Assembly: GCA_951812855.1 (NCBI GenBank)
Contig: OX638337.1
Coordinates: 1,110,001 to 1,142,000, forward strand
DNA length: 32,000 nucleotides
Source of the DNA: an uncultured Lentisphaeria bacterium
GTDB lineage: Bacteria; Verrucomicrobiota; Lentisphaeria; JABSQK01; JAJFLO01
Direction of reading: 5' to 3'
Shown one piece after another: positions 14,484 through 30,186 of the stretch (position 1 is its first letter; each line of letters begins with the position of its first letter). A model generated the notes under the pieces. The model saw only the letters and a program-made list of their open reading frames with translations, had not been told where the DNA came from and searched no databases. Position numbers and translations under genes: made by a program.

Positions 14484-15701
14484 ATGAATCAAAATCAGAA
14501 ACCTGGCACAATTGAATACACAAAAGAAACACATGATCTTGAAATCAAAGATGCACAGTTAATTTTTCAACAGGTATGGCAAGATTTAATCGCTAAATTC
14601 AAGAAAGAAAATCTCCGGTTCCCGCGAGAAATTATCTGGTTGGGCGGAGCCCCCGGTGCGGGTAAAGGAACCAACACCCCTTATATCATCGAAACAAGAG
14701 GAATAAGTGCTGCACCAATTGTCATCAGCTCACTGCTGAATAACCCGGAAGCAGAGAAAATTAAGAATGCAGGGGGCATGGTTGGTGATAAAGAAGTTGT
14801 TACCTTACTGCTGTTTGAACTGTTAAACCCGATTTATGAATCTGGTGTTGTCGTTGATGGATTCCCTCGAACAAAAGTCCAGGTTGAATGCCTAAAACTA
14901 TTTTTTGAAACAATGTTAAAGTTGAGAGAAGAATTCGAAACCTTAACTCTAAGTAAATGTTTTATACCATCTCGATTTCATCTTGTACTCTTATTCATTG
15001 ACGAAAAGAAAAGCGTGGAACGGCAGTTTAGCCGAGGATGTAAGGTTAAGGAGCACAATAAAAAAGTTCAGGATTCTGGCGTAGGAACACTTTTAGAAGA
15101 ACGATCTACAGATTATTCTGAAGGAAAAGCAAGAAAACGATATAAAGTGTTCAAAGAAACAACTTATGAAGCGTTAAAATCTTTGAGGGAAATTTATCAT
15201 TACCACTTTATTGACGCATCAGGCTCTCCGGAGATGGTACAAGAAAATATATCCCGTGAATTTCAGTATCAGAGTTCTCTGGAATTAGCACCATCGATTT
15301 ATGATCGGATACGTAATATTCCACTCGCCAGCCAAGTAATTCTGCATGCAAGACAAAACTTAATAAAACGCCTTGAAGACTATCAGAACGACTACACTGA
15401 ACTGTTTGGTGTTATAATAAAACTAATCGAGAATGAATTTATTCCTATCATAAAACGGCATGCGATTTCAGGTTTAGCAATTATTAACACGAATAATAAT
15501 GTTTTTAATGATAAGACAGCTCTTGATATATTAATAGACATTCTAATTGAAAGGGGCTACCAAGTCGCAATTGATACGACAACAGTTCATATTCCGGAAA
15601 AAATTAATCCGGTTACCAATTCAATTCAATGTTTAGAATTATTATCGCATAGAATCGAAGTAAAATTTACAGCATGTCAAATCAGAAGGGGAATAAGCTG
15701 A
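14484..15701 (+). CDS. Adenylate-kinase-fold NMP kinase-like protein with N- and C-terminal extensions
   Basis: 405 aa. The P-loop is GGAPGAGKGT, and the AK core motif VVVDGFPRT(x)VQ is present. A LID-like region reads ERQFSRG...EERSTDYSEGKARKRYKVFKETT (compare GR.DD..E....RL..Y...T in adenylate kinases). About 45 aa at the N-terminus and about 140 aa at the C-terminus have no motif I recognise. The stop lies 6 nt before def. Confidence 0.6.
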   Translation: MNQNQKPGTIEYTKETHDLEIKDAQLIFQQVWQDLIAKFKKENLRFPREIIWLGGAPGAGKGTNTPYIIETRGISAAPIVISSLLNNPEAEKIKNAGGMVGDKEVVTLLLFELLNPIYESGVVVDGFPRTKVQVECLKLFFETMLKLREEFETLTLSKCFIPSRFHLVLLFIDEKKSVERQFSRGCKVKEHNKKVQDSGVGTLLEERSTDYSEGKARKRYKVFKETTYEALKSLREIYHYHFIDASGSPEMVQENISREFQYQSSLELAPSIYDRIRNIPLASQVILHARQNLIKRLEDYQNDYTELFGVIIKLIENEFIPIIKRHAISGLAIINTNNNVFNDKTALDILIDILIERGYQVAIDTTTVHIPEKINPVTNSIQCLELLSHRIEVKFTACQIRRGIS

Positions 15702-15707
15702 TTAAGA

Positions 15708-16289
15708 ATGGGACAAATACCTGCACAGACAAATAAATTAACGCTTTGTTATTATGGTCATCGAGCATTACGAAAAAAAAGTTGTGATGTTTGTGAAATT
15801 ACCAATGATATTCAGAGACTGGCCCAAAATATGATTGAAACTATGCATGCGGAAGGTGGTATCGGTTTGGCTGCACCTCAAGTAGGTATAAATATCAATC
15901 TAGTTGTAATAGACATACCCGGTTCAAGCCAACCCGATAATCCAGATTTACCTTCAACCTCACCGGGCGAAATTAATTTATTGCCGTTGATGCCATTGAT
16001 ATTGATAAACCCAAAATTATCCAACTTTTCTGAAACAAAAACTGAATATGTCGAAGGTTGTTTAAGTATCCCCGGTATAAAAAGCAAGGTGTATAGACCT
16101 GAGTTCCATGATTTAGAGGCAACATTAATCAATGGGAAGACGATTTCTTACCGATGCGGTGGGTTATTGGCAAGATGCCTCCAGCATGAACATGACCATC
16201 TTGAAGGTATTTTATTTTTAGATTTATTATCTAAACCCAAACAAAAATCTTTAGACGGACAACTTAAAAAACTAAAATTCAATGATTGA
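15708..16289 (+). CDS. def: Peptide deformylase
   Basis: All three PDF motifs are present: GIGLAAPQVG, EGCLSIPG and QHEHDHLEG. Confidence 0.92.
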   Translation: MGQIPAQTNKLTLCYYGHRALRKKSCDVCEITNDIQRLAQNMIETMHAEGGIGLAAPQVGININLVVIDIPGSSQPDNPDLPSTSPGEINLLPLMPLILINPKLSNFSETKTEYVEGCLSIPGIKSKVYRPEFHDLEATLINGKTISYRCGGLLARCLQHEHDHLEGILFLDLLSKPKQKSLDGQLKKLKFND

Positions 16290-16471: not shown

Positions 16472-19120
16472 CTACCTCCTAAAATCAGGAAGCCCCCGAA
16501 TGTCTGCTGTCCGAATTGGAAGTCCGGCAGGATTCACTAATCTTGCAGTTACAAAAATTAAGAGATTTGTTTTTCGGCTGTTTTCAGATTTGTTTTTGAA
16601 CAATCGGCCAAATACCGGTATATCTGCAAGATAAGGTATTTTATCATCACGGCTGACAATATTTTCTTTAATCATTCCACCTAAAACAACAGTTTCACCG
16701 TCCCATACGATAACACGTGTTTGAATCAGCCTTCTTGAGACAATTGGTCTCTCTACTTTGACTTCTATTGTGTCACCACCGAGTTCAACATTATAGTTAT
16801 AAGAATCATTTATGTTTTTATCAGCTTCTACAACCTGAGGTTCTAAATCTAATTCGATTGAATAACCGTCAGATGCGACAGTTGGGGTAACCGTCAAAAT
16901 TACACCAACTTCAGTTGCTTCACCAAACTCAGGGGTGGACGGTTTAATTGTCGCCCCTGCTGCATTATCCTGACCTCCTGTTGCAGCCTGGAGTTCTGGC
17001 TCAGTATATGATTCAGGAAAATAATGTTCCTCAATTACTTTAATTACTGCAGTTTCCCCACTTACTGTGGTGATTTTTGGTGCCGATAAAACTTCGGTGC
17101 TGTCTTTTTGCTCCAATGCATGGATGATCGTATCAAACATTAGATCACCAATAATACTGTTTACAGCTAACAGCTCGTCATTACCCAGGAATCTCAGACC
17201 TTTTGATATATTCTGCGGACTCGTATCAGATTGATTTCCAATCGGCTTAAAAGCAAAATTATTACTCAGTTTAAAATCTGGTCCACCTTGACCGTCAAAT
17301 GTTAATACATCGGGATTATTTCGATTTTTTATAACTTCTCCCTTAAATGCCCATTCAAATCCTAACTCTTCTAAATCATTTTGTGCTATCTCTATAAATT
17401 TTGCCTCGATTGTCACCTGGGCTGGCTGTATATTTAATTCAACTAATACCTTTTCGACTTTTCTAAGGTTTCCAGGTGTATTTGTGACAATTAGCTTACT
17501 TGTCCTTTGGTCAAAGGTAATTTTCGCTCCTGCCGGAAATTCAACGCCATATCCTTCAAATAATTTTTTTGGATCAATCAGTGCCTTTTTGCTTGAAGCA
17601 TCGACTCCCTCAAGTCCTCCTTTTGATTCGATCGTTGCTGTTGCCTTTAGAAAACCCGCTTCAATAGGATAAAAACGAGTTTCAAGTTCATCAAACGGGA
17701 TGTCTTGCGATGCAATTATGATTGCATGAGTTTCAACTTTATATTTTAGCCCGGCACCCTGGCAAATATACCGAATTGTTTCCCCCAATGGAATATTATC
17801 AAAATCCATTGTAATTGTAATCTCACCACCAGATGATGACGTGTCACCTTCGTCTTCAGACTCCCCCTCCTCATGTGAATCTTCAAAATCTTCAAAATCT
17901 TCAAATTCGAGTTCATCTCCCTCATTTTCTTCAACTTCTTCTTCAGGCGTTTGACCAGTGGTACCAACTGACAATTGTAAAAATATGTTGACTCCTTCTC
18001 CGTCAGGATCTAACTCTCTGCTCCGGCTTTTCAAATATTTAATAACCGAATGAATCCCTGCTTCCTCAAAAATAATTTTTGGAATAATAATATTTTCTAA
18101 CTTCGACCAAATCCCTTCACCGGCACGTAACATTTTCCTGATTGGTTGAGAACTGTCAACGATAACCTCCGGGCTTACTAAGGGAGCAACTGGATCATTC
18201 CATTTCCATTTTACCTCCGCCATACGATCTGCAACCATTACTTTATGTCTTTCAGCAGCCGCATCAATTAATTTTTCATTTATACGTTTTAAAAACTGAG
18301 TTGCTGATATGTTATAAGGATCTTTCAAAATAACTTGTTCAAATATTTCACGAGCGTCAGAATATCGCTTATTGTTAAAATAAACTCTTCCTTGTGCTAA
18401 TTTTATCTCAATGTTGGTATCCCGGGTTGGTTTTTCAGGATCAACATTTTTTGCAGATGTCCGTTCTTTGAATTCAGCCTGTTTAATCGAATTTCTAAGA
18501 CTTGTAATTTTTTTATAAATTTCCTTTTTCCTGCCTGGATCTTTTTCTATAACTTTCTGATATTTTTCAATTGCATCTTCAAAGTGGTCTGGTTTTACGA
18601 GTACTCTTGCATCTTTTGCGGTTCGTTCAGCCCATTCTTCGTAAGTAAAAGCTAATAGCTGATCTATCAGCTTTTGTTTTTTGACTACGCGTTCTTGCGA
18701 TCGTGATACTTCTGTAAGTCTTACCTGGGCTGATATGAACTCTCTTACAGCAGTTTCATAATCACCTTGAATAAATGATTTCCGGCCGTCCATGTATAGT
18801 TGATCTGCTTCAAGCTCTTTTTTTTTACGTCTGACAATTTCATTTTCATCTATTTCCTGAAGTGAATCCGAAGATATTGAAGGAGTGGGTGTTTCTGCAT
18901 CGATAATATTAGAATCATGCATCATTTCAGACCTTCCGGGTATCAATTGGGGATCATCTTCTATCTCAAGGCCTTCTGCTTCTTCAAATCCATCTTCGAT
19001 TTCTTCTTCATCACCGGCGTATGCAAGATTTACAGTGATAGAATTTAATAAAGAAAATGATACAGCCGCACAAATAAGGACAAAGATCAAAGTTCGAAAC
19101 TTTGATACTAAATTTTTCAT
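16472..19120 (-). CDS. Secretin (GspD/PilQ superfamily) with a long TPR-like N-terminal extension and an acidic linker; Amuc_1098-like
   Basis: The C-terminal secretin domain reads LSAPKITTVSGETAVIKV ... RVIVWDGETVVLGGMI...DKIPYLADIPVFGRLFKNKSENSRKTNLLIFVTARLV. Upstream are N0/N1-like modules (ITITMDFDNIPLGETIRYICQGAGLKYKV; TSKLIVTNTPGNLRKVEKVLVELNIQPAQVTIEAKFIEI). I prefer ATG 19120 (MKNLVSKFRTLIFVLICAAVSFSLL..AYA signal peptide), preceded by AAGGGAGGA, over the track start 19165. Confidence 0.88.
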   Translation of the reverse strand: MKNLVSKFRTLIFVLICAAVSFSLLNSITVNLAYAGDEEEIEDGFEEAEGLEIEDDPQLIPGRSEMMHDSNIIDAETPTPSISSDSLQEIDENEIVRRKKKELEADQLYMDGRKSFIQGDYETAVREFISAQVRLTEVSRSQERVVKKQKLIDQLLAFTYEEWAERTAKDARVLVKPDHFEDAIEKYQKVIEKDPGRKKEIYKKITSLRNSIKQAEFKERTSAKNVDPEKPTRDTNIEIKLAQGRVYFNNKRYSDAREIFEQVILKDPYNISATQFLKRINEKLIDAAAERHKVMVADRMAEVKWKWNDPVAPLVSPEVIVDSSQPIRKMLRAGEGIWSKLENIIIPKIIFEEAGIHSVIKYLKSRSRELDPDGEGVNIFLQLSVGTTGQTPEEEVEENEGDELEFEDFEDFEDSHEEGESEDEGDTSSSGGEITITMDFDNIPLGETIRYICQGAGLKYKVETHAIIIASQDIPFDELETRFYPIEAGFLKATATIESKGGLEGVDASSKKALIDPKKLFEGYGVEFPAGAKITFDQRTSKLIVTNTPGNLRKVEKVLVELNIQPAQVTIEAKFIEIAQNDLEELGFEWAFKGEVIKNRNNPDVLTFDGQGGPDFKLSNNFAFKPIGNQSDTSPQNISKGLRFLGNDELLAVNSIIGDLMFDTIIHALEQKDSTEVLSAPKITTVSGETAVIKVIEEHYFPESYTEPELQAATGGQDNAAGATIKPSTPEFGEATEVGVILTVTPTVASDGYSIELDLEPQVVEADKNINDSYNYNVELGGDTIEVKVERPIVSRRLIQTRVIVWDGETVVLGGMIKENIVSRDDKIPYLADIPVFGRLFKNKSENSRKTNLLIFVTARLVNPAGLPIRTADIRGLPDFRR
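17879..17905. repeat. Perfect 9-bp tandem repeat x3 (ATCTTCAAA) inside the secretin acidic linker
   Basis: Read directly from the sequence: atcttcaaa atcttcaaa atcttcaaa. On the coding (minus) strand it is in frame and encodes FEDFEDFED within EEEVEENEGDELEFEDFEDFEDSHEEGESEDEGD. Confidence 0.9.
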
Positions 19121-19165
19121 GTGATCCTCCCTTAAATTTAATAAGGACATAATATTAACAGACAA

Positions 19166-20275
19166 TCATTGTAATAATCTGTCTTTTTCTTCTGCTGAAT
19201 ACTCTTTCACATTATAATCAACTTCTTCAGATCCAACTTCTCTGGCTATAGTTTGATTTTTGCCTACACTTACTATTTTGTAAATTTCTTCATTCCCATT
19301 TGAGTCTTTCAATGGAATTGCTTCATTCAACATTATTTTTATTTTGCTTGCTCTTTTATTGTAAATATAGACAAATTCGTAAAAATCATTGTGAGCGTAA
19401 GCACGTTTCTTAGGCAATAGCGTTATTGGTTCTTCATTACCTTTCTGTATAGTAATCGAAGAATCTGCAACTGTAATCTTATCGTTTAATTTTTCCGTGT
19501 ACTGAGCATCTTTTATGACATATCCCCCCGACTTTTGAATCTCTTTTCCTATTCTCAAAAAATCGGATTTCCATTTCTTGCCAGATTTATAACTAACATG
19601 AATATCCCAGTTGCTTTTATCATCGGGCTGATTATTAGTATTGATTTTTTTAAGCCTGGCGTTTATGGATTGTCGCACTCTTTTTAAAAATCGCAAGCGA
19701 GTGATAAGTTTAGGTCGGGATTCGGAATCACTCAAATCTGTTTCTCTATTATATTCTTCGATATTGCTGAACCCATCTCCATCGAGATCAAGTCTCGCAT
19801 CTCCGGCTTCCTTCTTGTCAAGCCCTTTTTGAGTTTCTACAAAATCGGGAATTCCATCGGAATCAGAGTCGTCTGAATCCGACATATCTGAATTTGCAGA
19901 TTCAGCTAACAAATTTGACTTCTCGGTAAATGGACTGCGTTTTGTCGTTCTGTGCAATAAATAAGGTGAACCGTCCAGGCTGTGAACAAATTTCCCCGGG
20001 TGCACTAACGAACCTTCCCCAAAACCTTTTTTCCAAAGTTGTTTTGGGTCTGGCTCAAGCTGGATTGCTAACAGTTCATCAGGAACTGATTCTATCTCAT
20101 TTGTTGGCAATTTTGCTTGTAAATCCTGATCGCTTTTATTGACTGCTTCCTGAGTTTTCTGTAAATCTTTCGTTTGGCAAACCAATACAATTGCAAATAT
20201 GATCAGGAGTATGCCCAGGATAATCTTGTCATAATAATTCTTGAAAAAATTTCCAATTAAATGCAAATACTTCAA
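19166..20275 (-). CDS. Membrane-anchored protein with thrombospondin-type-3-like Ca-binding repeats and a C-terminal beta domain (PilP position; Amuc_1099-like)
   Basis: 369 aa. The TTG start lies 5 nt after the upstream stop, with AAGGA 9 nt upstream. There is an N-terminal TM helix (IILGILLIIFAIVLV). Asp-rich repeats are DSDDSDSDGIPDFVE and DLDGDGFSNIEEY (DxDxDG type). The C-terminal ~170 aa look beta-rich. Confidence 0.6.
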   Translation of the reverse strand: MKYLHLIGNFFKNYYDKIILGILLIIFAIVLVCQTKDLQKTQEAVNKSDQDLQAKLPTNEIESVPDELLAIQLEPDPKQLWKKGFGEGSLVHPGKFVHSLDGSPYLLHRTTKRSPFTEKSNLLAESANSDMSDSDDSDSDGIPDFVETQKGLDKKEAGDARLDLDGDGFSNIEEYNRETDLSDSESRPKLITRLRFLKRVRQSINARLKKINTNNQPDDKSNWDIHVSYKSGKKWKSDFLRIGKEIQKSGGYVIKDAQYTEKLNDKITVADSSITIQKGNEEPITLLPKKRAYAHNDFYEFVYIYNKRASKIKIMLNEAIPLKDSNGNEEIYKIVSVGKNQTIAREVGSEEVDYNVKEYSAEEKDRLLQ

Positions 20276-20280
20276 AATCT

Positions 20281-21123
20281 TTATTCCTTTTTATGAAATT
20301 CAAAATAGTCAACGATCATAGTCGCAGTTAATTCTGCAGCTTTACTTGAAAAAGCCAATCTCTCACGCATGCTCAATGGGTTATCACTGTTTCGTCTTTT
20401 AGATGAAGGCGGATTCTTCATCTTAACCGCCCGGGTTTTAATTTCAAAAGTACGAAGTATGAAAAAATATTTGGCCTCATTCAAGGAATTCAAAAAGTGC
20501 TGAATTCTTTCAATGTCTCCAACCAATACTAACTCAAAAGGCATAAAATTATAAAACTCACGCTTTATCACTCTATGGTCACTAATTCGTCTGAATTTTA
20601 CAAGTCTGTCAACCTGGGCCTGTGACACTAAGTAAATTAATTCATTAATTATTTCAATTTGTTTACGCATAAGACTTATTTCTTCGTTGTTAGGCAGAAC
20701 ATCCGGCTGCATATACTTATCATACGAAAAATATTTGAGATCATCCGGCATATAAACATCTTCACCTCTCAACAAATTTTCCATTTTAATGCAGAATTGG
20801 CGTAGATAAAGCTTAAATTTTAGAGGCGTCATGTCCGCATCAACAACGGGTGCAGCGAATTGTTCCTCTAACTGTTTTATCGTTTCATCAAACTCTTCTT
20901 GTATTTTACTGTAATTCTTTTCTGCCCGAATAACGTTATCAGTAATCAACGCATATTTACTGGTTATGAACCCTTCCTCAGCAGCAATGATTTTGTCTAC
21001 ATCAACTTTAAATTTTTGAATCTGATTATTTTGCCCCGCTATAAGAACGGCTCCAATAATGCCGGACAGGACTGTTGAAGCTATAATAATAATCAAAAAT
21101 AAGTGTTTCTTAACAAACTGCAT
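20281..21123 (-). CDS. PilO-like bitopic membrane protein (Amuc_1100-like)
   Basis: 280 aa. It has an N-terminal TM helix (LFLIIIIASTVLSGIIGAVLIAG), a coiled-coil-like middle, and a C-terminal PilO-type block, FMPFELVLVGDIERIQHFLNSLNEAKYFFILRTFEIKT. Several blocks parallel what I remember of Akkermansia Amuc_1100 (see findings). Confidence 0.55.
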   Translation of the reverse strand: MQFVKKHLFLIIIIASTVLSGIIGAVLIAGQNNQIQKFKVDVDKIIAAEEGFITSKYALITDNVIRAEKNYSKIQEEFDETIKQLEEQFAAPVVDADMTPLKFKLYLRQFCIKMENLLRGEDVYMPDDLKYFSYDKYMQPDVLPNNEEISLMRKQIEIINELIYLVSQAQVDRLVKFRRISDHRVIKREFYNFMPFELVLVGDIERIQHFLNSLNEAKYFFILRTFEIKTRAVKMKNPPSSKRRNSDNPLSMRERLAFSSKAAELTATMIVDYFEFHKKE

Positions 21124-21137
21124 GAAACTACCTTAAT

Positions 21138-23048
21138 CTATCGCTTTGTGATTATAGGATTTACAAGTCTAAGTTGAATCTTAAAGGTTGTTAGATTTCT
21201 TGTCTTTTCACTAAAATTTGTTTCTAAAATACGAGTTTCGTCAGGATTCTCTGAAAACATTTCATTCCATTGTAAACTCTCCAGAAAGACTTCGGGTAAA
21301 ATCATATCCGATTTCATTTCGTTTTCTTCCCAGAATCCCTGATAATTTTCAAGCTCCTTTTGTGCTTTATCTCCGGCATCTAACACAATTTCTGCATTTT
21401 GAATTTCCAGACTGCTGAGAATACCTTCAAATTTCTCAACCTGCTCATCGGTATAAAGCTTCCTGGACGGTTCAGTACTTGGAATCGCGATTGCACTGCC
21501 AACGATATTAAACCAGGCATACTCATCTCTCCCGACAGCCGTACTCTTGCCCGATTTTTTACGCACAAATGGGTTTGATGTGCTGGATTTCCTTTTACTC
21601 TTTGACAACGCTGTTTTAGGCGACTTTAACTTTGTAATCTCTTCCAGCCATACATCTTGGGGTTTATGTAATTGAAGTGCGTTTAAAAAATTGCTCCAGT
21701 CATACCGGCGATCTAATAAATCCTTTATTGAATTGAACTGTGCAAATACTTTTTTCTGCTTGTCTTCCGCGGCATTTATCTGAATTTTAATGTTATTCAG
21801 ACGCTCAACATTCGCCCTCTTTTTCTGAGATGTATCCTTGAATAAGGTTGCAGTCTTAGTTTTTACAGCAAATACAATTGCGAAAATTGATAACCAAATG
21901 CACAGACTCCCAATCAAAAAAGGCTTTTGAGTCGCAAATGATTGACTTTTACGTAAAGTCTCGGGGATTAAACTAATTTCAACTGGACATTTCAGGGAAC
22001 TTCTAAGTGCTAATCCGACACTCTCGGGCATCATATGTACAACTTTTTCAAGTTGTTTTACATCCATTGACTCCCCTGTTTTAACTATTTTAAACGGATT
22101 AAAATAGCTCACTTCCATTCTTAATTTTTCTGAAAAGAATGTATCGGTGCAAGCCATTGCAGAACTTCCGCCGGAAAGGTATAAACAGGATGGCTTATTT
22201 CCTTTCTGCTGCGTACGGTAAACACTAATTGATCGATTTATCTCGCCATGCAGACGGGTCATGACGTTACGTACAATCTTTGAAATTGTTGCGGCAACTT
22301 CAGACTCGGGCTCTTCATAAGCTCCTCCGAGGGCAACAAAACCATGACGCTTTTTCAATGTATCGGCTTCTTCTGTACTAATATTAAACTCTTTTGCAAT
22401 CTGCTGTGTTATTGAAAATCCACCAATTGGAATTGTTCTGGCAAAAAAACGTTGTCCATCTAAAAATAATAACGTTGTGCAACGACCGCCAATATTTAAG
22501 ACCATGTCACATCCGTTATTTCCAATACGATTTGCCCGTGCAGCGTTATAAAGAACGGATGGTGCGAAATCGACAATGTGAATACTTAAACCCGCATTAC
22601 CAACAGCATCGATTATGCTTTCAACAATATCGTTTTTAATAACAACAAACATAACCTCCGGTCCTTCTTCAGCTCCAGCCAGCAGCTGATAATCCCAAAT
22701 AACTCCATCCATTGGAAACGGTACATTTTGCTTTGCTTCATATTCAACGATTTGCTTAATTCTGGATTCTTCTTCGGATACTGGCGGGAGATTAACGAAT
22801 CTGAGAAATGCCGCTTGACCGGATACACAAACGGAAGCTTTTCGAGTTGAAAAATTACCCTCCTCCAAAGCCTCTGCAAGTGCTTTTGTAATGACGTCTG
22901 TTCTATTGGCTTCACTAACCTGATCAACATAGTCCGCTTGCTGAAAACCATGGAGAATCAGTCCACCGTTAGCAGGAAATTCAAATTCACTGACCCTTAC
23001 AGCGGTAGAGCCGATATCAATTGCCAGAGATCTGTCTAATTTCGCCAT
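21138..23048 (-). CDS. PilM-PilN fusion protein (actin-like ATPase-fold PilM domain + TM + PilN-like periplasmic region; Amuc_1101-like)
   Basis: 636 aa. The N-terminus reads LAIDIGSTAVRVSEF, followed by LNIGGRCTTLLF and LYLSGGSS, which are FtsA/PilM actin-like phosphate and adenosine motifs. At residues ~357-366, EISLIPETLRK resembles the PilN N-terminal INLLP motif. A TM helix follows (FLIGSLCIWLSIFAIVFAV), then a coiled coil, then a PilN-type RYDWSNFLNALQLHKPQDVWLEEI block. Confidence 0.8.
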   Translation of the reverse strand: MAKLDRSLAIDIGSTAVRVSEFEFPANGGLILHGFQQADYVDQVSEANRTDVITKALAEALEEGNFSTRKASVCVSGQAAFLRFVNLPPVSEEESRIKQIVEYEAKQNVPFPMDGVIWDYQLLAGAEEGPEVMFVVIKNDIVESIIDAVGNAGLSIHIVDFAPSVLYNAARANRIGNNGCDMVLNIGGRCTTLLFLDGQRFFARTIPIGGFSITQQIAKEFNISTEEADTLKKRHGFVALGGAYEEPESEVAATISKIVRNVMTRLHGEINRSISVYRTQQKGNKPSCLYLSGGSSAMACTDTFFSEKLRMEVSYFNPFKIVKTGESMDVKQLEKVVHMMPESVGLALRSSLKCPVEISLIPETLRKSQSFATQKPFLIGSLCIWLSIFAIVFAVKTKTATLFKDTSQKKRANVERLNNIKIQINAAEDKQKKVFAQFNSIKDLLDRRYDWSNFLNALQLHKPQDVWLEEITKLKSPKTALSKSKRKSSTSNPFVRKKSGKSTAVGRDEYAWFNIVGSAIAIPSTEPSRKLYTDEQVEKFEGILSSLEIQNAEIVLDAGDKAQKELENYQGFWEENEMKSDMILPEVFLESLQWNEMFSENPDETRILETNFSEKTRNLTTFKIQLRLVNPIITKR

Positions 23049-23062
23049 ATTAATTTACTAAT

Positions 23063-23821
23063 TTACTCTTTCTCTTTCTTTTTTTTGCTGGAAATATTCG
23101 TTAATTTATCTGAAATAATTGAATTGTATGAACCATAGCTGGCCCATTCCCAAGGCGTTTCACGGCGTCCCTTTAGCCCGGTATTATCTAATTTTATTAC
23201 TTCCCCTTTAAACCAACTTTCATTTGAATTAAACGGAAAAAAATTAGCCGGCAGTGAAGAGCCGGTCCTTAGATCATCCCCTCGCCACCAGACATTTGCT
23301 ACCAGTCTTTTACCGTCATAAACCTTTAATTTAACAAAAATCCCATCTCTTACTATCTGCGAGCCATAACGCTCATAAGCATTAGATTCAATGTATAACA
23401 CGGCATAATGTTTAACAGGAACATTTGCTTTGCCTGCTTTAACACTGCCATAAGTAATATCTTTTTTCATTAAAACTGAATGCTGAATCAACGGTGGATC
23501 GTTGCTTTTTCCAGTTTTACTTCCGGCAATTATTACATTCCAGGAAAATAATAGCTTATCTATCCAGGAATATTTACTATTTCTTGTATTTTTCTGTTGA
23601 GCATTTGAGCTGGCATTATAGTTCACAGTGATCCTAAGATACTGAGACTTTGAGTCCAGTGGCAATCCAGGCACTCGATTATCTGTAGGTCGAATTTTTA
23701 CTTTTTGGGTAGTAATTCCCAAAATTTTAATCTTTGCACGCGGTACATTGACACGGGATTGTGCTGTTCCGGGGAATGTAAAAATTAACAGAGTAACGAA
23801 TATAATTGAAAGGTATTTCAT
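23063..23821 (-). CDS. Secreted beta-rich protein of unknown function, first gene of the pilus-like operon (Amuc_1102 position)
   Basis: I prefer ATG 23821 (MKYLSIIFVTLLIFTFPGTAQS, a signal peptide) over the track TTG at 23836. The protein is 252 aa with no Cys, Trp-rich blocks (WWRGDD, PWEWASYGSY) and a Lys-rich tail (SSKKKKEKE). There is no prepilin G/FTLIE motif. A 14-nt gap separates it from the PilM-N gene. Confidence 0.6.
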   Translation of the reverse strand: MKYLSIIFVTLLIFTFPGTAQSRVNVPRAKIKILGITTQKVKIRPTDNRVPGLPLDSKSQYLRITVNYNASSNAQQKNTRNSKYSWIDKLLFSWNVIIAGSKTGKSNDPPLIQHSVLMKKDITYGSVKAGKANVPVKHYAVLYIESNAYERYGSQIVRDGIFVKLKVYDGKRLVANVWWRGDDLRTGSSLPANFFPFNSNESWFKGEVIKLDNTGLKGRRETPWEWASYGSYNSIISDKLTNISSKKKKEKE

Positions 23822-23859
23822 TAGATATTTTCTCAATTATTAATAAATTACAGCACCTT

Positions 23860-23888
23860 TTTAAATGAGGTGCAGGCACAGCTGTCAA
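23860..23888 (-). promoter_or_regulatory. Candidate sigma70-type promoter of the pilus-like operon (TTGACA-N17-TTTAAA)
   Basis: The minus strand reads TTGACA (23888-23883), a 17-nt spacer gctgtgcctgcacctca, then TTTAAA (23865-23860). It lies about 40 nt upstream of the first gene's ATG. This is a sequence match only, in AT-rich DNA. Confidence 0.3.
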
Positions 23889-24005
23889 TGCTGTAAAGGC
23901 AGAGTGCAAAACGCAGCTTATGTCAGAAGAGTCGGTAACTAAAAATTTAACAAAATAAATTATTGAAAACTGTTATAACAACAATTTTTTGATAAAATTT
24001 TAGTA

Positions 24006-24965
24006 TCATTCAAAAAAATCCCATAATCTTCGGTTAAAACCATTTTTTACTGGATTTTGGTTTTTCCAAATATTGCCTTCATAATAGGAGATCGCTACGG
24101 CTTTTGGCAGTTCTGAACGTGCAAATACCAATTGCGAGGTCATTTCTACTACTTTTGCACGCATTTCTTTTTCTTTAGCAACCGCCTGAACACGTCTCAT
24201 TTCCGCTTTTGCTTGTGCAACCTGCTTGTCGGCAACAGCCTGTGCATCACGTAATCGAGCCCCGATATTATCAATTACTTCTATATCAGCAACATCTACA
24301 GAAACAATTTCAAATGACGTTCCTCTGTCAAGTGCGTGATCCAAAATGTACCGTGATATTAATTCAGGCTTTTCAAGTATATGTTTATGAGATTCAGCGT
24401 TTCCGATTGCAGCAATTATGCCTTCTCCAACTCTGGCAATTACAGTCTCTTCGTTCGCTCCGCCAATTAACTTTTCAAAATTTGTTCTGACTGTAATTCG
24501 CACTTTTACACCTAATCGAATTCCGTCACCTGTCACCCCTTTTATCATTGTAGATTTATCTTTCGGGCATACCAAAACCTTAGGCTCAACCGTCGTTTGG
24601 ACACCATCAATAACATCTCTTCCGGCTAGATCAATTGCTGCCAATCTGGAAAATTGATAATTTAATCCTGCCTTATTTGCCGCAATAGCAGCATCTGAAA
24701 CTGCCTTCAGATTTCCACCTGATAACGCATGGGCTTCTAATTCCTCAGATTCAATTGATAATCCCGCCTTGGTCAACATTATCAAATGAGATCCCACCAC
24801 AATTGGATTCAATCCACGGAGCCTCATTCCAATCATTTGGAAAACGGAAAGTCTTACACCGGAAGAAAATGCCTGGAGCCAAAACAGGAAGTAATTAAAG
24901 AAAACAATCAAAAATGCAACTGATAAAACAATGAAAATTATAAAAAACAGAGTCAAAATCGGCAT
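24006..24965 (-). CDS. floA: Flotillin-like protein FloA (UPF0365/YqfA family, SPFH domain)
   Basis: 319 aa and near-collinear with my memory of B. subtilis FloA. Shared blocks include MIGMRLRG, AHALSGGN, AAIDLAGRDV, RITVRTN.EKLIGGA.EETVIARVGEGI, FEIVSVDVADI and AQAKAE.RR..AVA.E.EMRA. Confidence 0.9.
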   Translation of the reverse strand: MPILTLFFIIFIVLSVAFLIVFFNYFLFWLQAFSSGVRLSVFQMIGMRLRGLNPIVVGSHLIMLTKAGLSIESEELEAHALSGGNLKAVSDAAIAANKAGLNYQFSRLAAIDLAGRDVIDGVQTTVEPKVLVCPKDKSTMIKGVTGDGIRLGVKVRITVRTNFEKLIGGANEETVIARVGEGIIAAIGNAESHKHILEKPELISRYILDHALDRGTSFEIVSVDVADIEVIDNIGARLRDAQAVADKQVAQAKAEMRRVQAVAKEKEMRAKVVEMTSQLVFARSELPKAVAISYYEGNIWKNQNPVKNGFNRRLWDFFE

Positions 24966-24971
24966 ACCTAA

Positions 24972-26471
24972 TCAGCTACTTGAACTATAGTTTGGTGCGT
25001 CCTTAATTACCTTGACATCGTGTGCATGTGCCTCGCGTAATCCAGAACTTGTTAAACGAATAAATCTTGCTTTACTTCTCAATTCCTTTAAGTCTCTGGA
25101 CCCGCAATATCCCAATGCAAATTTTAAGCCCCCTACATATTGAGTTAACGCAGCAGCAACAGACCCGGTGTACTGTACCAATCCTTCAATTCCCTGCGGT
25201 ACTAATTTATCATGGTCTTCTATTCCACTCTGAGAATATCTGTCTTTGCTCCCTTTGCCGCCTTTCATCGCTTCTAAACTGCCCATTCCCCGATAAACCA
25301 CATACGTCCTCCCCTGATGCAGTATTTTTTCCCCGGGACTCTCCTGAGTCCCGGCAAAAGCAGATCCCATCATAACTGTCGCCCCGCCAACAGCAATTGC
25401 TTTTGGAACATCTCCGGATTGTTTTACTCCTCCATCTGCGATTATGGGAATTTCTTCACCAACAGCCTTATACACATCATAAACAGATGAAAGTTGCGGG
25501 ATACCGACTCCTGTCACAATCCTGGTTGTGCAAATAGACCCGGGACCAATTCCAACTTTTAAGGCATCTGCTCCGGCATTAAGCAATTCCTTTGCAGCAT
25601 CACCGGTGCCGATATTACCTGCAACAATATCAACATTGGTAAATTCTTTTTTGACTCTTTTTATGGTTTCAATCACACCTTCAGTATGCCCATGGGCTGT
25701 ATCAATTACTAACGCATCAACACCAGCATTGGCCAGGCGTTCTATTCGTTCATAATCCAGTGGACCTATTGCTGCAGCAACGCATAATTTGTGATATTTG
25801 TCTCGGTTTATAACCGGCTCAACATTTTCAGTGAGACTCTTCACATCGTGAAAACTATATAATCCGCCTAAATTTCCCTGTTCATCAACAATCGGTAATT
25901 TGCCTATCTTATGTAACATCATAATTTCAAAAGCATCATCCAGCGTAGTCCCGACTGAGCCTGTGATAACGTCTGAGGTCATTGCTTCCTCTACGGGAAC
26001 ATTGACATTTCTAAGGAATTTAATATCTTTGGACGTAATAATACCAACCAAATGGCCCTGCTGATCAATAATTGGAAATCCCGAGAAATTATATTTACGT
26101 TCTTCTTTTTCTGCCAGTAAATTTTTTACTCTTATCCCTTTATGAAAAACAACCGGTTTTTCAATCAGGCCATTCAGATATCCTTTTACCTTTCTGACTT
26201 CTTCTGCCTGTAACTCCCGGGACATATTTCTATGAATAACGCCAATTCCACCATTTAGAGCCATAGCAATCGCCATTGATGCTTCTGTAACGGTATCCAT
26301 TGCAGCACTTACGAATGGTATTTTGAGTGAAATATTTCGACTGAACTTAGTCGTGACAGAGGTTTCATCCGGTTTAAAATCAGCATAAGAGGTACAAAGT
26401 GTCACGTCATCAAACGTCAATCCCACACCTGGAAATAATTCCATAAATTCCGGCACACTTCTATTTAGCAA
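24972..26471 (-). CDS. guaB: IMP dehydrogenase
   Basis: 499 aa. It has LTFDDV at the N-terminus, tandem CBS domains, the catalytic loop [12 protein letters not shown], and GGVKQSGD. The start is either TTG 26471 or ATG 26444. Confidence 0.95.
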
Positions 26472-28064: not shown

Positions 28065-28239
28065 TCACATATGTATGCTAAATGACCAATCGCCCTATCC
28101 CGTTAACGCAAATATAAATGCAATAAACTATTATCACGTTAGTTACAAAACAAAATTAGAAAATTGGCCATCTAACTGCTCTGCCGAGATTGCATATAGT
28201 AACTTTATATTCTTATCGAATTTAGGAGAGAAAAGAAAT

Positions 28240-30186
28240 ATGGGCAAAATATTAGGCATAGATTTAGGGACAACCAATTCTTGCATGGCGGTAATGGAAG
28301 GCGGGGAAGCCGTCGTAATACCCAATGCAGAGGGTCAACGTACAACACCTTCCGTTGTTGCGTTTTCAAAATCTGGCGAAAGGCTGGTGGGCCAGACAGC
28401 CAAACGTCAAGCCGTCACTAATCCGCAAAATACAATTTTTTCTATAAAACGATTTATTGGCAGAAAATATTCTGAAGTAAAAAATGAAACAGAACTCGTT
28501 CCCTATGAGGTTGTTGAAGCAAAAAATGGAGATGTTCATGTAAAAATAGATGACAAAACCTATTCGCCCCCTGAAATTTCTGCGATGATTCTTGCGAAAC
28601 TAAAAGCGGATGCAGAATCATACCTGGATGAATCGGTTAAAGAAGCAGTTATTACCGTACCCGCGTACTTTAATGACAGCCAAAGGCAGGCAACTAAAGA
28701 CGCGGGAAAGATAGCTGGTCTTGAAGTTCGCAGAATTATAAATGAGCCAACTGCAGCATCACTTGCCTATGGTCTTGACAAAAAGAAAGACGAAAAAATT
28801 GCCGTCTATGACTTAGGTGGTGGAACCTTTGATATCTCAATACTTGAATTGGGTGATGGAGTTTTCGAAGTAAAATCAACAAATGGAGACACCCATCTCG
28901 GAGGTGATGACCTTGATGAAGCAATAATTAATTGGCTTGTCAATGAATTTAAAAAAGAGAATGGTATTGATCTAAAGGCTGATCCTATGGCGTTACAGCG
29001 GTTGAAAGAATCTGCTGAAAAGGCAAAATGTGAGCTTTCAAGCAGCTCTGCCAGCGAGATTAACTTACCCTTTATTACTGCAGATGCATCTGGCCCAAAA
29101 CATTTAACGCAATCTTTGACAAAAGCAAATCTGGAGAAATTAACAGACAGCCTCTTAGACAGAACGATTAAGCCATGCAACAACTGTATTAAGGATGCAA
29201 ATTTAACCGCATCAGAGATAAATGAAATCATCATGGTTGGGGGACAAACCCGAATGCCCAGGGTTATTGATATTACTAAAACAATTTTTGGCAAAGATCC
29301 CCATAGAGGAGTCAATCCGGATGAAGTTGTTGCTATAGGTGCCGGAATCCAGGGTGGCGTTTTAGCCGGTGACGTTGACGATGTATTGCTGCTTGACGTG
29401 TCACCACTTTCATTGGGGATTGAAACACTGGGCGGTGTTTATACTAAACTAATCGAAAGAAATACCACGATTCCGACAAAGAAAAATGAAGTATTCAGTA
29501 CAGCAAGTGATAACCAGCCTTCAGTCGAAATTCATGTTCTTCAGGGAGAACGTGAAATGGCTGCCTATAATAAAAGTATCGGAAGATTTCATTTAGATGG
29601 AATTCCTCCGGCACCGAGGGGGATACCTCAAGTTGAAGTTACCTTTGATATAGACGCAAACGGAATTTTACATGTCTCAGCAAAAGATCTTGGAACTGGA
29701 AAAGAACAGAAAATAACAATCACTGCAAATTCAGGTCTTAGCGATGAAGAAGTCGAAAAGATGGTCAACGACGCAAAAACTCATGCTGATGAAGATAAAA
29801 AGAAGAAAGAATCTATTGATACAAAAAATCAAGCTGACACTCTTGTATATCAAACGGAAAAACAGTTGAATGAGAATGGTGAAAAAATTCCTGATGGGAT
29901 TAAAAAGCCTGTCGAAACTGATATTGAAGAGCTCAAGAAAGCCATAAAAGATGATGATACAGAAAAAATGAAATCCATCATGGAAAATCTCCAAAGCAAA
30001 ATGCAGAAATTTGCCGAAGAGTTATACAAAAATGCACCTCCTCCACAAGATCCGGGTGAAAATACTTCAACTGAAAGTGAAGTGTCAAGCAAGGCATCTG
30101 ATTCTTCATCAAAATCAAAAAAACATCATGAAGGAGAGGTGATTGATGCGGAATTTGATATGGTTGATGATGAACAAAGCAAATAA
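28240..30186 (+). CDS. dnaK: Molecular chaperone DnaK (Hsp70)
   Basis: [18 protein letters not shown]..., DLGGGTFD, and an EEVD-less acidic C-terminus. ATG 28240 is preceded by AGGAGAG at 28224-28230. The track start 28075 adds 55 residues that look non-coding. Confidence 0.97.

Follow-up and report, generated by a model that had tools for sequence, protein, structure and literature searches.

What does the envelope half of a type IV pilus do when neither a pilin nor a motor is encoded beside it? The question is raised by a 32,000-nucleotide stretch of the genome of an uncultured Lentisphaeria bacterium (contig OX638337.1, positions 1,110,001 to 1,142,000 of the forward strand; hereafter the window), in which five successive open reading frames (ORFs), g1 to g5, occupy the minus strand between positions 16472 and 23836. 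An earlier note, made from the sequence alone, had described a signal-peptide beta-rich protein, a PilM-PilN fusion, a PilO-like protein, a transmembrane-anchored Ca-repeat protein and a secretin, an architecture with which our profile and structure searches agree. The five genes are probably the ortholog of the locus named MUL2 in Akkermansia and specify two parts of a machine resembling the type IVa pilus, the envelope-spanning alignment complex and the outer-membrane channel:

23063..23821, minus strand: g1, predicted Amuc_1102 (MUL2A)-like secreted beta-rich protein, 252 amino acids
21138..23048, minus strand: g2, predicted PilM-PilN fusion, 636 amino acids
20281..21123, minus strand: g3, Amuc_1100-like or PilO-like bitopic protein, 280 amino acids
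19166..20275, minus strand: g4, Amuc_1099-like transmembrane-anchored protein in the PilP position, 369 amino acids
16472..19120, minus strand: g5, TPR-secretin fusion, 882 amino acids

Two of the starts could be placed further upstream, at a TTG at 23836 for g1 (257 amino acids) and at a TTG at 19165 for g5 (897 amino acids). Public gene calls on identical DNA begin at the ATG codons at 23821 and 19120 (252 and 882 amino acids); with these starts the intergenic gaps measure 14, 14, 5 and 45 nt, in agreement with the earlier note. We compared the cluster with 80 related loci of Lentisphaeria and Kiritimatiellota, taken with flanks of up to 10 kb, with naive ORF calls and contig ends included. 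The five genes are real, because each family recurs, in the same order, in 56 to 73 of these loci: g2 in 73, g1 in the same position in 65, g3 in 62, g4 in 56, and secretins in 63 (94 copies). Despite the naive ORF calling and the contig ends, the complete order from g1 to g5 is present in 44 loci, and the median gaps within related clusters are 5–40 nt. The taxa carrying these families are Lentisphaeria, Victivallales, Oligosphaera, and Kiritimatiellota metagenome-assembled genomes (MAGs). Relatives of g2 were found in 457 GTDB species representatives. The nearest is an unclassified "Verrucomicrobia bacterium" MAG (88% identity) and the next are all Lentisphaeria, Victivallales, Oligosphaera, or Kiritimatiellota MAGs. 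Other neighbors of the cluster in the 80 loci are housekeeping genes (yidC, secG, tpiA, fabF, fabZ, and miaA).

The earlier note had named the Amuc_1102 to Amuc_1098 cluster of A. muciniphila as the match of these genes. This was right for all five, which appear to correspond to Amuc_1102 through Amuc_1098 because each product matches its Amuc family or structure by profile, every NCBIfam score lying below its cut-off. Judged from sequence, g1 to g5 is a distant Lentisphaeria ortholog of MUL2. The least evident correspondence is that of g1. Its N-terminus, MKYLSIIFVTLLIFTFPGTAQS, has the look of a Sec signal peptide, with no class III prepilin leader. Searched alone, g1 matched no Pfam or NCBIfam family, no model of an Amuc_1102 family among them, and the single sequence did not recover the Amuc_1102 structure (7DSZ) from the PDB. 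A family profile was needed for recognition: built from 63 syntenic members, it matched 7DSZ with E = 5.1e-20 over profile positions 34–224. The homology spans nearly the full length of the g1 family profile and includes an Ig-like fold. A single-sequence search of 1.84 billion representatives returned only 38 relatives, and the g1 family therefore seems to be fast-evolving. g1 is thus predicted to be a Sec-exported, Amuc_1102-type Ig-like protein. The match of the single g1 sequence to 7QYI, a "pilus assembly protein" from a paper on DNA uptake by FimT, covers 42 residues at E = 0.025 and was taken as chance.

The second gene carries the clearest signature of a pilus alignment complex. Three parts can be distinguished in its product:

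21996..23048, minus strand: PilM actin-like domain, cytoplasmic, residues 1–351 of 636 (Pfam PilM_2, 1.1e-34)
21960..21983, minus strand: junction motif VEISLIPE, residues 356–363, kept in the family
21141..21920, minus strand: PilN-like part, with a transmembrane helix, a long coiled coil and a periplasmic alpha/beta domain

The full protein matches NCBIfam Amuc_1101_fam at 2.2e-136 (456 bits, cut-off 650) and just reaches the cut-off of the pilM model TIGR01175 (133.6 bits for 133). With an AlphaFold2 model (AF2; predicted local distance difference test score, pLDDT, 76), the best Foldseek matches are the PilM proteins of Pseudomonas aeruginosa, Thermus thermophilus and Myxococcus xanthus, at E-values from 1e-24 to 3.5e-27 (3.5e-27 for 5EOU) and, for 2YCH, a target-normalized TM-score of 0.86. 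The junction has the consensus VEISLIP in the family alignment A6, in which E2 is invariant and L5 is kept in at least 90% of the sequences. It resembles the N-terminal INLLP peptide by which PilN binds PilM, which we take to be its counterpart. Behind it, the hydropathy peak at residues 377–395 marks the transmembrane helix, and the AF2 model shows a helix of about 100 residues (363–461) followed by a beta/alpha domain (466–634). The identification of g2 as a PilM-PilN fusion is supported, weakly for the window copy, because the C-terminal family profile A6 matches M. xanthus PilN (3JC8_Na, E = 7.6e-4) and 3 of 11 family members match Pfam PilN (best 8e-5). Profiles of the g2 C-terminus and of g3 align over the transmembrane and coiled-coil part alone (probability 59%), and we did not use PilN/PilO paralogy as evidence.

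g3 begins with a hydrophobic anchor at residues of about 8–30. It matches Pfam PilO (9.5e-6, 26.2 bits, cut-off 22) as well as NCBIfam Amuc_1100_fam (7.4e-13, 48.6 bits, cut-off 180), and a protein identical to it carries a precomputed assignment to Pfam PF28028, Amuc_1100. The g3 family profile A4 finds the Amuc_1100 structures 6KNY, 6LAD and 6LAF at E-values of about 4e-9. The next protein, g4, is composed as follows:

20171-20227, minus strand: transmembrane anchor, residues 17–35, followed by a disordered linker
19733-19876, minus strand: two Asp-rich, TSP3-type Ca-binding repeats, residues 134–181 (predicted)
19196-19708, minus strand: C-terminal beta domain, residues of about 190–360

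Residues 12–340 match NCBIfam Amuc_1099_fam (7.9e-12, 45.4 bits, cut-off 50), and the repeats match throspo3_MtsD (2e-5); TSP3_bac was found in 36 of the 56 members of the g4 family. The AF2 model has a pLDDT of 70 overall and of more than 80 in the C-terminal beta domain. Neither this model in Foldseek nor the family profile in the PDB gave a significant match. From these features, g4 is an inner-membrane-anchored Amuc_1099-type protein whose binding of Ca is predicted. Considered as PilP or GspC, it yielded TSP3 and Zn-ribbon-like matches alone. Alignment A3 shows that most Lentisphaeria g4 homologs have a four-cysteine motif, CxxxxC...CPxC, between the transmembrane anchor and the TSP3 repeats, a region with Zn-ribbon/IBR-like Pfam matches in about 10 of the 56 members; the window g4 and its closest relatives have a single cysteine and no such motif. 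Just before their transmembrane anchors, the consensus lines of both the g3 and the g4 family show much the same short motif on the cytoplasmic side, M-x-F-[IL]-K-K-[NH]; it may be a docking peptide common to both, or nothing more than residues obeying the positive-inside rule.

The last gene, g5, encodes a secretin with a signal peptide and an unusual N-terminal half:

about 18266-18832, minus strand: TPR region (Pfam TPR_2, 1.5e-7)
17825-17950, minus strand: acidic low-complexity insert of 42 residues, TPEEEVEENEGDELEFEDFEDFEDSHEEGESEDEGDTSSSGG, between the TPR region and the N-domains
about 17120-17815, minus strand: N-domains
16535-17119, minus strand: secretin domain (Pfam Secretin, 9.5e-38)

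The mature N-terminus is likewise acidic. g5 matches NCBIfam Amuc_1098_fam at 5.3e-117 (392 bits, cut-off 750), and no AMIN domain was matched in it. Two tandem secretin paralogs follow the g4 homolog in 29 of the 80 loci, of Victivallales type (L038, L039, L042-L045, L049, L051, L053-L056, L059, L061, L062, L067, L070-L073, L077-L079, L081, L082, L084, and L086), and three are found in L073 and L078; the window has one.

Among generic secretin models, the best for g5 is GspD (1.7e-51, 175.5 bits, cut-off 351), slightly ahead of the PilQ model TIGR02515 (4.1e-47, 161.1 bits, cut-off 284, model positions 38–428 of 428), and its PDB matches alternate between PilQ and GspD proteins (Vibrio cholerae PilQ, 8e-24; P. 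aeruginosa XcpQ, 5e-20, and PilQ, 1e-19). These scores favor an alternative in which the cluster would correspond to GspC-L-M-D, one half of a type II secretion system (T2SS), where a short pseudopilus acts as a piston exporting folded enzymes (e.g., glycoside hydrolases) through g5, with no surface pilus. The layout of g2 is also that of GspL, with an actin-like domain, a transmembrane helix and a periplasmic ferredoxin-like domain. We nevertheless think this unlikely. g2 and g3 match PilM_2 and PilO, whereas the T2SS-L, T2SS-M and T2SS-C families gave no match to g1 to g5 at E<=0.1 in Pfam and NCBIfam, the PilM structures (about 1e-27) stand far ahead of the cytoplasmic domain of the GspL protein EpsL (2e-9), and g4 has no similarity to the HR or PDZ domains of GspC.

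Much of what can be said of the function of the cluster comes from Akkermansia, whose MUL2 locus (NCBIfam Amuc_1098/1099/1100/1101; PDB 7DSZ and 6KNY) shares all five families with the window copy, in unchanged order and orientation, and has no pilin or motor genes within the cluster itself. Other pilus proteins of A. muciniphila are encoded away from it. Amuc_1098 is more abundant than any other outer-membrane protein of Akkermansia and was localized to the outer membrane, and homologs of it were noted in other Verrucomicrobia and in Lentisphaera araneosa (Ottman et al.). In cell fractionation, the proteins of the cluster go with the envelope, and labeling places Amuc_1100 at the cell surface. 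In papers citing Davey et al. (2023), the cluster is named MUL2, with Amuc_1102 as MUL2A and Amuc_1101 as MUL2B, and is reported to be important for mucin acquisition; one such paper implicates pili in mucin import into "mucinosomes." The description of the machine function as uncharacterized in the earlier note is to that extent dated. MUL2 synteny extends across Akkermansiaceae and Verrucomicrobiales, less so in Chthoniobacterales and not in Methylacidiphilales, and a role in particle attachment has been proposed (2026 ISME J paper). Apart from the remark on PilQ in L. araneosa (Ottman et al.), our literature search found no description of the cluster from Lentisphaeria.

The window copy differs from the Akkermansia locus in its host, which belongs to the class Lentisphaeria and not to Verrucomicrobiae, and in its setting. 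The GC content of the window ranges from 0.31 to 0.44 and averages about 0.37, on a genome contig of about 1.94 Mb; that of Akkermansia is about 0.55. The flanks are guaB-floA and def, whereas in Akkermansiaceae MUL2 is flanked by genes for rho, dephospho-CoA kinase and 3-dehydroquinate dehydratase (ISME J paper). By homology tested for all five genes, the pairing of g1 with Amuc_1102 included, the conserved module now appears to extend to Lentisphaeria and Kiritimatiellota.

Where, then, are the pilin and the motor? The earlier note had seen neither in the window, and our motif, Walker A and family scans came back equally empty. The prepilin motif G-[FY..]-[TS]-L-[IV]-E identified no true prepilin among window ORFs of at least 50 amino acids (the lone match to the expression is an Asp/Asn-tRNA ligase), the T2SS-E Walker A motif is absent from all frames of the 32-kb window, and the T2SSE, T2SSF and prepilin peptidase families matched no window ORF of at least 100 amino acids. 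Across the 80 loci, motor genes adjoin the cluster essentially never, the exception being L060. A look-up of PilB homologs revealed, in addition, a conserved Lentisphaeria motor operon, in which a pair of paralogous MshEN+T2SSE ATPases is joined by a PilT-like ATPase and a platform protein of PilC/GspF type:

L060, 17371-21408, convergent, directly after the secretin: PilB-like ATPase (MshEN+T2SSE), PilT-family ATPase, PilC/GspF-like protein
L088, 8212-14323: Lentisphaeria motor operon
L090, 8267-14212: Lentisphaeria motor operon
L091, 6325-12270: Lentisphaeria motor operon

No pilin or PilMNOQ gene was found within 10 kb of operons of the L088, L090 and L091 type, whose neighbors are housekeeping genes. 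Machine genes are dispersed as modules in Lentisphaeria, where an "orphan half-machine" is the norm. Since the motor operon lies elsewhere in relatives, the most likely reading of the cluster is as a single module in a type IVa pilus-like machine whose genes are dispersed, and since modules are dispersed in this lineage, missing neighbors do not mean absent motors. The lack of nearby motor genes on which the earlier note had dwelt is thus less remarkable than it suggested, since relatives have a motor operon elsewhere or, in L060, beside the secretin. This operon points toward a scenario that the note itself had set against its proposal, in which the cluster may be half of a dispersed, otherwise ordinary machine. 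As to pilins, eight prepilin-type (GFTL[IV]E) proteins are encoded 7–10 kb upstream of the cluster in seven Victivallales loci (for example L045, 2878-3645; L053, 2572-3351; L056, 219-1079). They are probably incidental, because large families of pseudopilins are present in genomes of the Planctomycetes-Verrucomicrobia-Chlamydiae group.

The motor genes of the relatives bear on the choice between pilus and T2SS in both directions. In L060, the PilB-like ATPase comes nearer to the cut-off of GspE (625.4 for 630.25) than to that of PilB (602.3 for 675.65), and GspF and PilC give equal scores for the platform protein. Relatives' motor operons hold, however, a PilT-family retraction ATPase, which in L060 scores 456 bits on NCBIfam PilT, above the cut-off of 319, and which classical T2SSs lack. 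The same genes count against a second alternative, a filament-independent secretin complex that would export or display its own products (g1 and g3), or else work as a gated conduit in the outer membrane through which polymers are imported, pilins and a dedicated motor both being absent. Such a complex would account for the near absence of pilin and motor genes within 10 kb of the cluster in the 80 loci, for the surface location of Amuc_1100, and for Amuc_1098 exceeding by far all other outer-membrane proteins of Akkermansia in abundance, an unusual trait in a pilus secretin; the link of mucin import to the MUL2 locus would fit as well. We rate it as distinctly improbable. Relatives encode PilB, PilT and PilC, adjoining the cluster in L060, and the cluster keeps a conserved PilM domain with a PilN-type junction, the part that is coupled to the PilB/PilC motor in known systems. 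We came upon no precedent for a secretin complex of this kind, though no search was aimed at one.

A pilus scaffold could also serve DNA uptake, as in the HofMNOPQ or Thermus PilMNOWQ competence systems. The PilMNO(P)Q order is common to competence loci, and g5 weakly matches models of the DNA-uptake porin HofQ (at 100 bits, well short of their cut-off of 554). ComEA, ComEC and DprA are, however, absent from the window and none of them recurs in the 80 loci. The g1 match to 7QYI is not significant, and the specific homologs of the cluster are Amuc/MUL2 proteins, for which the reported phenotype is mucin acquisition. A competence function is therefore highly improbable.

Several points weigh against our preferred reading, in which the cluster supplies a MUL2-orthologous, type IVa pilus-like machine with its alignment complex and its outer-membrane channel. 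Among the profile searches proposed in the earlier note, those for PilM_2, PilO and Secretin matched, whereas Pfam PilN did not match the window copy of g2 and the scores on all four NCBIfam models (Amuc_1098, 1099, 1100, and 1101) lie below their curated cut-offs. Because of these scores, the cluster counts as a distant ortholog, whose equivalence in function is an assumption. In the same way, the Akkermansia phenotype concerns mucin, and its carry-over to the Lentisphaeria host is by assumed analogy. The note had placed g4 in the "PilP position"; the position holds, and the equivalence to PilP is positional only, with no similarity to PilP or GspC in Pfam searches of 56 members, in the PDB profile search or in Foldseek. 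The surface location of Amuc_1100 fits poorly with a purely inner-membrane, PilO-like role. The pilin, ATPase, platform protein and prepilin peptidase of the source genome are presumed, by analogy with relatives, to lie elsewhere; searching 5.8 billion proteins with the L060 PilB gave, among the 120 matches listed (all at least 64% identical), none on the genome contigs of 1,941,460 and 1,947,381 bp. Finally, a common promoter, a terminator and co-transcription are putative. The presumed promoter region is the sole gap of more than 45 nt upstream of the five genes:

23822..24005, minus strand: floA-g1 intergenic region

The single candidate promoter of the earlier note does not stand out in it, as sigma-70-like sites number 23, against 24.4 +/- 5.3 in shuffled sequences, and are weak matches with no excess. 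A scan of the operon region placed the terminator-like sites inside genes.

On the reading that we prefer, the canonical architecture of type IVa pili suggests how the parts would work together. The PilM domains of g2 would form a cytoplasmic ring, and the PilN part of g2 would pair with g3 in an inner-membrane ring. In the place of PilP, g4 would span the periplasm and join the g2-g3 ring to the g5 secretin, whose TPR region plausibly substitutes for a pilotin. This module would dock a PilB/PilT/PilC motor encoded elsewhere, which would extend and retract a fiber of pilins or pseudopilins that, like their prepilin peptidase, would also have their genes at other loci. If MUL2 is a guide, the machine would probably capture or take up extracellular polymers or attach to surfaces, and not act in motility alone. 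The gene order and topology of g2 to g5 follow the logic of PilM-PilN-PilO-PilP-PilQ in P. aeruginosa, M. xanthus and T. thermophilus. In contrast to these systems, PilM and PilN are fused, an extra Amuc_1102-type gene stands upstream, and the secretin has an N-terminal TPR region and an acidic insert. The slot of PilP, a lipoprotein whose beta-sandwich binds the N0 domain of the secretin, is filled by an unrelated-looking Ca-repeat protein that has a transmembrane anchor and no lipobox.

The genes that flank the cluster are those named in the earlier note:

15708-16289, plus strand: def, convergent, downstream of g5
24006-24965, minus strand: floA, upstream of g1 (Pfam FloA, 5.8e-106)
24972-26471, minus strand: guaB, upstream of floA (Pfam IMPDH, 4.5e-142)

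We treat guaB-floA as context: the two genes are conserved same-strand neighbors whose membership in the machine is conjectural. In the window, guaB and floA are 6 nt apart and floA lies about 170–185 nt from g1. Among the 80 loci, floA is present in 25 and directly upstream of the cluster in 22, and guaB-floA precedes it on the same strand in L007-L013, L020, L023, L027, L047, L057, L058, L066, L073, L075, L076, and L078, Oligosphaera included. The arrangement may be a synteny inherited from an ancestor and conserved, or it may allow read-through from the flotillin gene. The remainder of the window is of housekeeping character (dapA, dapB, ileS, gpmI, an adk-like gene, asnS/aspS, dnaK, exbB, and exbD), and no tRNA or Rfam element was found in its 32 kb. 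Two of these neighbors depart from their families. At 14484-15701, a 405-amino acid protein combines a weak adenylate-kinase domain (ADK, 4e-9, residues 55–183) with a long uncharacterized C-terminal extension, and is a neighbor of def also in L007. The DnaK ORF at 28075-30186 has 703 amino acids, a length shared by public annotations, with the HSP70 match starting at residue 59, through either an N-terminal extension or an over-long start. In the ENA assembly ERZ18545485, at least six short contigs (L001-L006 and L087) carry an identical g2 with small differences elsewhere (g4 of 366 or 369 amino acids, guaB of 490 or 494 amino acids), and there is a second near-identical genome contig of 1,947,381 bp; these contig variants point to strain heterogeneity in the source sample.

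The locus thus belongs to a known, named system; the taxonomic extension is modest and no new kind of system is involved. The Akkermansia locus draws interest through the host activity of Amuc_1100 and the link to mucin acquisition. Because the five-gene order is conserved in Lentisphaeria and Kiritimatiellota, a small genome of low GC content included, and the motor genes make up a conserved operon of their own, the locus is recast as a lineage-wide machine module and not a gut-specific adaptation. The divergent sequences are, moreover, material for structural and coevolution analysis. A wider proposal, possible in our opinion but doubtful, is that the module represents an ancestral machine specific to Verrucomicrobiota (Verrucomicrobiae, Lentisphaeria and Kiritimatiellia), in which a type IV pilus scaffold was adapted to import large extracellular polymers through the secretin. 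Its lineage-specific parts may be the Amuc_1102-type Ig protein, the Ca-binding, periplasm-spanning Amuc_1099-type protein and the TPR-secretin fusion. If this were true, mucin uptake by Akkermansia would be one special case, and its retention by a genome streamlined to 1.9 Mb would place the module in core physiology rather than among accessory adhesins.

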